Below are positions 3,633 through 3,725 of a stretch of 64,000 bases of DNA, piece by piece. A program made the position numbers and the translations under genes. Position 1 is the first letter of the stretch. The number at the start of each line of letters is the position of its first letter. The DNA is taken from NCBI RefSeq assembly GCF_053078305.1, contig NZ_CP166879.1; one strand, 5' to 3'. The notes under the pieces are model-generated. The model was given only the letters and a program-made list of their open reading frames with translations. It was not told the origin of the DNA and searched no databases.

Positions 3633-3659
3633 AAAAAAACCACCTGGCGGTGGTTTTTT
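3633..3659 (-). terminator. tR'-like intrinsic terminator about 65 nt downstream of Q-like gene
   Basis: CCACC-TGGC-GGTGG stem-loop flanked by A-run and T-run (bidirectional in form); position equivalent to lambda tR'. Confidence 0.55.
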
Positions 3660-3685
3660 CTTACTTTGCCATCGCGTACAAAATC

Positions 3686-3725
3686 GGCAAAATATCAGAT
3701 TTATACGAAACATACGCGATTTAAT
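3686..3725 (-). promoter_or_regulatory. Putative late promoter pR'-like
   Basis: Minus-strand TCAATT, 17-nt spacer, TATAAA directly after the Q-like stop and about 40 nt before the terminator (short 6S-like transcript). Confidence 0.3.

Follow-up and report, generated by a model that had tools for sequence, protein, structure and literature searches.

We identified, directly downstream of the antitermination gene Q in a 64-kb window (the whole stretch of DNA analysed, 64,000 nucleotides), a short segment that is, with a probability of about 0.88, the late regulatory unit of a phage-82-type lambdoid prophage. The unit consists of a predicted sigma70 promoter that overlaps the 3' end of Q, the elements of a predicted sigma70-dependent pause and the intrinsic terminator tR', all of them on the minus strand. 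Its organization is ordinary and represents the already known 82-type pR'/pause/tR' biology. The original prediction, which gave no strand, had placed a pR'/tR'-like short-transcript unit right after Q, and on this point it is borne out by the conserved elements, their fixed spacing and the terminator.

According to the ORF list of the window, the prophage genes around the unit lie on the minus strand (Table 1). Along the direction of transcription, the order begins with a hok/sok type I toxin-antitoxin module, the DUF968 gene, rusA and the Q gene; these are followed by the regulatory unit, a small winged-helix (wHTH) ORF, a DNA methyltransferase gene, three tRNA genes, a second methyltransferase gene and copies of the STnc100 small RNA family. 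The STnc100 copies, each with a terminator hairpin at its end, are placed between the second methyltransferase gene and the edge of the window. In a near-identical genome, approximately 1 kb of DNA that matches the STnc100 region carries no annotation and is followed by an esterase gene and lysis genes. No stx genes are present, and the STnc100 copies fill the stretch between the second methyltransferase gene and the esterase and lysis genes. A PyrD leader (RF02373, 46804..46877, minus strand) identifies the right-hand part of the window as host chromosome, so the prophage is confined to the left part. Two further RNA matches, both above the Rfam threshold, were found on the plus strand, isrK (RF01394, 14718..14794) and C4 antisense RNA (RF01695, 14819..14906). 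Both overlap a 283-aa ORF (14667..15518) in its 5' part, and this region may represent a P1/P7-like c4/ant-type immunity or antirepressor module of the prophage early region.

Table 1. Features of the prophage late regulatory region and its surroundings, in window coordinates and in order of transcription
Feature	Coordinates	Strand	Remarks
hok/sok type I toxin-antitoxin module	6691..7015	-	Sok RNA RF01794, 117.7 bits, plus Hok-like 70-aa ORF; hokD in annotated relatives
DUF968 gene	4779..5861	-	
rusA	4407..4766	-	
Q antiterminator gene	3721..4416	-	stop codon TAA at 3723..3721
-35 hexamer TTGCAA (-35..-30)	3732..3737	-	within the last Q codons
17-nt spacer AAGTCAATTAAATCGCG	3715..3731	-	expected place of the Q-binding element (QBE), by inference
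-10 hexamer TATGTT (-12..-7)	3709..3714	-	conserved as TAYRTT
Predicted transcription start (+1)	3702	-	first A of AAA; from the published 82 pR' numbering
Predicted sigma70-dependent pause element	3686..3697	-	TG (+6,+7), A, TATTTT (+9..+14), GCC (+15..+17)
AT-rich tract GATTTTGT (+18..+25) and predicted pause	3677..3685	-	predicted pause at +25 (U, 3678) / +26 (3677)
Predicted short terminated late-leader RNA, ~70 nt	3633..3702	-	+1 to end of U-run; counterpart of lambda 6S RNA
Possible 5' stem-loop of the leader (+9..+41)	3662..3694	-	minimum-energy fold
tR' intrinsic terminator	3633..3659	-	stem CCACC 3653..3649, loop GCCA, GGTGG 3644..3640
Small winged-helix (TrmB-like, wHTH) ORF	3312..3509	-	65 aa in RefSeq relatives
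N6/N4 DNA methyltransferase gene	2103..3161	-	
tRNA-cluster promoter-like element TTGCAG-17-TATTAT	2072..2100	-	ends 9 nt before the first tRNA
tRNA genes, three	1811..2062	-	ARAGORN
Terminator after the third tRNA	1778..1797	-	simple scan
Second methyltransferase gene	790..1725	-	
STnc100 small RNA family (RF02076), two strong copies and one weak copy	1..689	-	154, 135 and 28.5 bits

The Q gene encodes a protein of 231 aa if translated from GTG at 4416, or of 229 aa from ATG at 4410, the start that is used in its RefSeq relatives, which carry the annotation 'bacteriophage antitermination protein Q'. The protein matches the Pfam family PF06323 (Phage_antiter_Q) with E = 4.7e-84 over positions 1-217 of the 220-position profile, and at the level of protein family this match alone makes the identification of Q secure. 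The regulatory unit corroborates the Q call of the original prediction independently of the Pfam match. Q proteins comprise three unrelated families, of which PF06323 is the Q82 family (Yin et al., PMC9388147), so that phage 82, and not lambda, is the proper comparison for the adjoining regulatory region. A PDB sequence search found no structure for the Q82 family, and the protein was modelled with AlphaFold2 from an input of 48 diverse homologues (pLDDT 84.5, pTM 0.72). A Foldseek search with this model placed AlpA at rank one (probability 0.91) and Q-lambda at rank 14 (probability 0.57), in both cases with non-significant E-values. As a lead only, Q82 may share, in its helical core, a distant relationship with other Q-type antiterminators; no report of such a kinship was found in a literature search.

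The predicted late promoter consists of the -35 hexamer TTGCAA and the -10 hexamer TATGTT. Each of the two matches four of the six consensus positions, and neither this pair nor the other candidate promoter after Q was reported by a consensus promoter scan, which is thus uninformative at this site. Because 72 sites within the 64-kb window are equally good, the promoter call rests on conservation and homology rather than on its score. The comparison set for the conservation consisted of 80 viral contigs in which Q is 70-100% identical to the protein encoded here, and covered the Q 3' end plus the 200 nt that follow it; 79 of these loci were usable and 37 were distinct. Conserved in the 79 loci are TTGCAA, the 17-nt spacing, TAYRTT, AAA and TGATAT(T/A)TTGC. 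The -35 hexamer is TTGCAA in all 79, although TTGCAA belonged to the anchor that was used for aligning them. All 37 distinct relatives have TAYRTT as their -10 hexamer, with T1, A2, T5 and T6 invariant, and the AAA at +1..+3, which begins six nucleotides past the -10 hexamer, is invariant in close relatives. The length of the spacer is fixed at 17 nt, while its sequence changes in blocks alongside the divergence of Q.

In more distant loci of the Q82 family, the -35 hexamer is still TTGCAA down to 41% Q identity and TTGAAA at 35%, and the -10 hexamer is CATATT, CAGAAT or TATTTT. The reading frame of Q across the -35 hexamer differs between loci, being aTT GCA Aaa here and TTG CAA in the relative L090, while in L093 the hexamer overlaps the stop codon. 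Its preservation across different frames of the Q 3' end indicates a constraint on the DNA and not on the protein. [quoted passage not shown] By analogy, the QBE of this prophage would be found in the spacer at 3731..3715.

A different register had been proposed for this promoter, TCAATT and TATAAA with a 17-nt spacer, which would start near 3693 and produce an RNA of approximately 60 nt. Both strings are indeed present at this spacing, TCAATT at 3728..3723 over the TAA stop codon of Q and TATAAA at 3705..3700, with the hairpin following 40 nt further on, and TATAAA agrees with TATAAT at five of six positions. Nevertheless, this register is very unlikely to be that of a functional promoter, as its -35 hexamer has only two matches out of six, its -10 hexamer is missing the final T, and the window contains 205 sites with a 17-nt spacer that are equal or better. 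In 24 of the 37 distinct relatives TATAAA is replaced by TGTAAA or TGCAAA, with the loss of the essential A2, whereas the upstream pair of hexamers is conserved. The register is also 9 nt too far downstream: TATAAA spans positions -3..+3 of the conserved unit, and a start site near 3693 would be located within the conserved pause element, in conflict with the published numbering of 82 pR'. Finally, the interval originally assigned to the unit, 3633..3725, excludes the -35 hexamer at 3737..3732.

The TTGCAA/TATGTT register, in contrast, agrees with the published anatomy of 82 pR'. The pause element of 82 pR' has been described as an extended -10 element, a -10-like sequence that ends at +14 and is closer to TATAAT than its lambda counterpart (Bird et al., PMC5001585). 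It is followed by the discriminator GCC at +15-17 and an AT-rich segment from +18 to +25, with U at +25 as the pause end; inserting one nucleotide at +18 moves a G, which is disfavoured there, to the pause end (PMC5001585). Taking the GCC at 3688..3686 as +15-17 makes the first A of the AAA at 3702 the +1 position (position +n corresponds to window coordinate 3703 - n) and puts the -10 and -35 elements at -12..-7 and -35..-30, that is, exactly at the conserved hexamers. With +1 at 3702, position +24 is G, position +25 is T, and every printed position of 82 pR' fits, in a comparison based on the Pfam family and on positions as printed in the literature, and not on a sequence alignment. The AAA start also agrees with the slippage initiation described for 82 pR' (Guo & Roberts 1990, as relayed in PMC5001585). 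A search of literature full text with 12-mers from the leader returned matches in unrelated papers only.

The predicted pause element is conserved along with the promoter. TGATAWNNT, followed by GCC or GGCC, is found 11 nt past the -10 hexamer in members of the family down to 35% Q identity, and the composite motif occurs once in the window (3737..3689), as opposed to 0.01 expected occurrences. Judged by their sequence, the promoter and pause element identified here appear to have what characterizes an 82-type unit. The same layout is seen in Enterobacter phage CobraSix, in Klebsiella phages and in Escherichia phage PhiR47_2, where Q identity is 65%, and in genomic and metagenomic contigs with Q identities of 54%, 49%, 41% and 35%. 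The resulting family signature is TTG(C/A)AA, 17 nt, the -10 hexamer, 11 nt, TGATA(T/A)NNT, and GCC or GGCC.

The terminator that completes the unit, the strong hairpin with a T-run of the original prediction, is real. The hairpin AAAAAACCACC-GCCA-GGTGGTTTTTT spans 3659..3634 on the minus strand, with further T's after it; its core stem is extended by A6/U6, and the U7 run occupies 3639..3633 (+64..+70). The 33-nt tR' segment has a predicted folding energy of -16.1 kcal/mol (z = -5.97), and none of 200 dinucleotide shuffles was as good. The stem has at least 10 different sequences in the relatives, with a T-run after each of them. An alignment of 23 distinct leaders reveals compensatory changes, with both sides changed at five of the seven pairs, and 91-94% of the terminator cells are paired, compared to 35-56% in slid controls. 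On the opposite strand, an Rfam match to STnc370 at 3591..3665 (33.5 bits versus a gathering score of 54, E = 0.13) is below the threshold and was regarded as a chance match, which probably comes from the symmetric hairpin with its A and T runs.

A hairpin of this kind might have nothing to do with a promoter, serving merely to end an early operon that contains Q, or else as a bidirectional insulator. It is located directly past the Q stop codon, is flanked by an A-run and a T-run, and is flagged on both strands by a simple terminator scan, all of which would be expected of such an element. This explanation is nonetheless highly improbable, because it does not account for the conservation of the -10 hexamer, the AAA and TGATAWNNT-GCC at fixed spacing across 35-100% Q identity, nor for the preservation of the -35 hexamer across reading frames and the point-by-point fit to 82 pR'. 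Further, the ORF list contains no credible plus-strand gene that would converge on the hairpin. Stopping the read-through from upstream is compatible with the role of tR' but does not replace it.

In the reading that we prefer, an 82-type late regulatory unit, an active promoter with its start site, a pause, the binding of Q and antitermination are inferred for this locus from the biochemistry of phage 82. The promoter TTGCAA-17-TATGTT overlapping the 3' end of Q would fire constitutively and start at 3702. Sigma70 would stay on the early elongation complex and rebind TG-A-TATTTT at +6..+14, backed by the GCC discriminator, whereupon RNA polymerase would scrunch and pause at +25/+26. In the absence of Q, the polymerase would leave the pause and terminate at the hairpin and its U7 run, releasing an RNA of approximately 70 nt. 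Once accumulated, Q would bind its site in the promoter spacer, engage the paused complex with the help of NusA and travel with the polymerase, which, modified in this way, would pass tR' and the later terminators and proceed to the lysis and structural genes. The late genes of this prophage lie beyond the window edge, and late genes downstream of the unit were seen in two related loci. A 97.6%-identical locus in a complete E. coli genome carries, on the Q strand and in this order, genes for an esterase, DUF1378, DUF826, a class II holin, lysozyme and a lysis protein, with the lysis genes approximately 6.6 kb past Q, and in PhiR47_2 the holin and lysozyme genes begin approximately 310 nt past Q.

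The predicted leader varies in length from 50 to 100 nt among the relatives, and a short late RNA under antitermination control has been reported for phage 82 (PMC7547250). The fold of the 71-nt leader has a z-score of -4.64. No Rfam family, including any StxS-like family, was detected for the leader on the minus strand (E <= 1). The possible 5' stem-loop, in which the discriminator region of the pause element pairs with +32..+41, has a z-score of only -1.9. None of its pairs has changes on both sides, several relatives have broken pairs, divergent leaders have z-scores between -3.2 and +1.0, and the short-leader relatives L044 and L054 lack the stem. Leaders of the Klebsiella phages have a predicted hairpin of a different sequence at the same place (z = -3.2).

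In addition to its part in late regulation, and without excluding it, the constitutive leader of approximately 70 nt could act as a trans-acting small RNA in lysogens. The precedent is StxS, for which the pR'-tR' leader of an Stx phage, 258 nt long, is processed to a 74-nt Hfq-binding regulator (PMC7547250), and a 5' stem-loop followed by a terminator hairpin with a long U-tail, as predicted here, is a common small RNA architecture. We consider such a role rather unlikely. What is conserved in the leader can be attributed entirely to the DNA-level pause element, with free variation elsewhere; the 5' stem is deleted in L044 and L054, has no compensatory changes and, as noted, the leader matches no Rfam family; and StxS originates from a much longer leader to which no relationship is detectable. 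About as doubtful is the related pair of proposals that the leader is a trans-acting RNA unrelated in sequence to StxS or that its 5' stem-loop modulates the engagement of Q82 and NusA. [quoted passage not shown]

Between tR' and the wHTH ORF there is a stretch of approximately 120 nt (3510..3632, minus strand) that is 81-95% conserved in numerous lambdoid and Stx phages whose Q proteins are of different types and is probably non-coding. A 106-codon frame that begins with ATG at 3632, right after the U-run, was rejected, because in the L023 group a 1-nt deletion leads to a stop after eight codons. This deletion, near 3632, sits in otherwise conserved DNA, and the only ORF that RefSeq annotates here is the 65-aa wHTH ORF. 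A Chi octamer just past tR' (3600..3593) is unremarkable by itself, as there are 23 Chi sites in the window.

Downstream of tR', four further intrinsic terminators were found on the minus strand (3325..3308, 1797..1778, 511..492 and 298..275), which is consistent with the need for processive antitermination. A consensus scan detected no internal promoter for the wHTH ORF and the two methyltransferase genes, so their dependence on Q remains plausible, and we consider it likely. The situation is different for the tRNA genes, which have a promoter-like element and a terminator of their own. The -35 hexamer, the -10 hexamer and the spacing of this element are kept in at least five flanking contexts, while its spacer and flanks diverge. 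The three-tRNA cluster looks like a self-contained transcription unit that probably does not depend on Q. In an Stx2a phage, a separate primary start for the tRNAs has been mapped downstream of tR' (Sy et al., PMC7547250). The claim that everything downstream, the methyltransferases and tRNAs included, is expressed only upon Q antitermination was thus overstated: it is plausible for the methyltransferases but doubtful for the tRNAs. The first tRNA is identified by ARAGORN as Met (CAT) and appears as tRNA-Ile in RefSeq relatives.

The unit appears to have been assembled from exchangeable parts. Matches in the phage collection break near the hairpin, some of them covering only the end of Q, the promoter and the leader, and others covering only the hairpin and the DNA downstream. 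The Stx2a phage Stx2_14040, for example, encodes a 126-aa Q followed by a different leader, a similar terminator and then the wHTH/methyltransferase/tRNA module, and in phiP27 a GIY-YIG nuclease gene is located upstream of the same module. The Q of Stx2_14040 was called Q21-like by eye from its sequence; the Q21-type family is PF06530. The similarity between Stx2_14040 and the prophage described here extends to the kind of terminator and the downstream module, but its Q, at 126 aa as opposed to 231 aa, has another sequence, and its leader and pause element are different as well. This sharing indicates that units with different Q types can exchange tR' and the cargo. Judging from these breakpoints, the Q-specific cassette is the segment from Q through the -35 hexamer, QBE, -10 hexamer and pause element, with tR' at the junction with exchangeable cargo. 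An exchange of cassette and cargo is to be expected because the Q-modified polymerase is not terminator-specific.

Compared with the phage 82 unit, the one described here shares a PF06323 Q, a predicted promoter over the end of Q, a predicted short leader RNA that stops at a terminator, a -10-like pause element that ends at +14, GCC at +15-17, the AT-rich segment at +18-25, G at +24, U at +25 and the AAA start. The terminator and the downstream cargo (wHTH, methyltransferases, tRNAs and STnc100) are mosaic modules that may differ from those of phage 82. The resemblance to the lambda 6S RNA unit, which had been proposed originally, applies to the logic of the system and to read-through by Q as the expected mechanism: both would have a constitutive late promoter by Q, a QBE in the spacer, a sigma70-dependent pause, a short terminated RNA and processive antitermination by Q. 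It does not apply to the type, which is that of phage 82, with a Q of the Q82 family, a pause at +25 and an RNA of approximately 70 nt. In lambda, Q belongs to PF03589, the pause element is at approximately +1..+6 with GGG at +7-9, the pause occurs at +16/17 and the 6S RNA is 194 nt long. Here, Q belongs to PF06323, the predicted pause element is at +6..+17, and the promoter and leader have no sequence similarity to those of lambda. By its sequence features, the unit would work as that of lambda does but is not a member of the lambda pR'/6S class. With the Stx phages it has in common a leader predicted to be terminated at tR' in lysogens, the tRNAs and other cargo between tR' and the lysis genes, and a separate promoter, or here a promoter-like element, for the tRNAs downstream of tR'. 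The leader from which StxS is derived, at 258 nt, differs from the total of approximately 70 nt here.

For the annotation of the prophage, these results give the late operon a predicted start at 3702 (minus strand), confirm the Q call and assign the Q82 regulatory type; the understanding of Q antitermination is unchanged by them. The signature TTGMAA, 17 nt, -10, 11 nt, TGATAWNNT, GCC is a compact tool for finding Q82-type late promoters elsewhere. The regulatory unit, whole or partial, is present in hundreds to thousands of E. coli genomes, and at least 80% of the segment was found in 263 of 5426 E. coli genomes.
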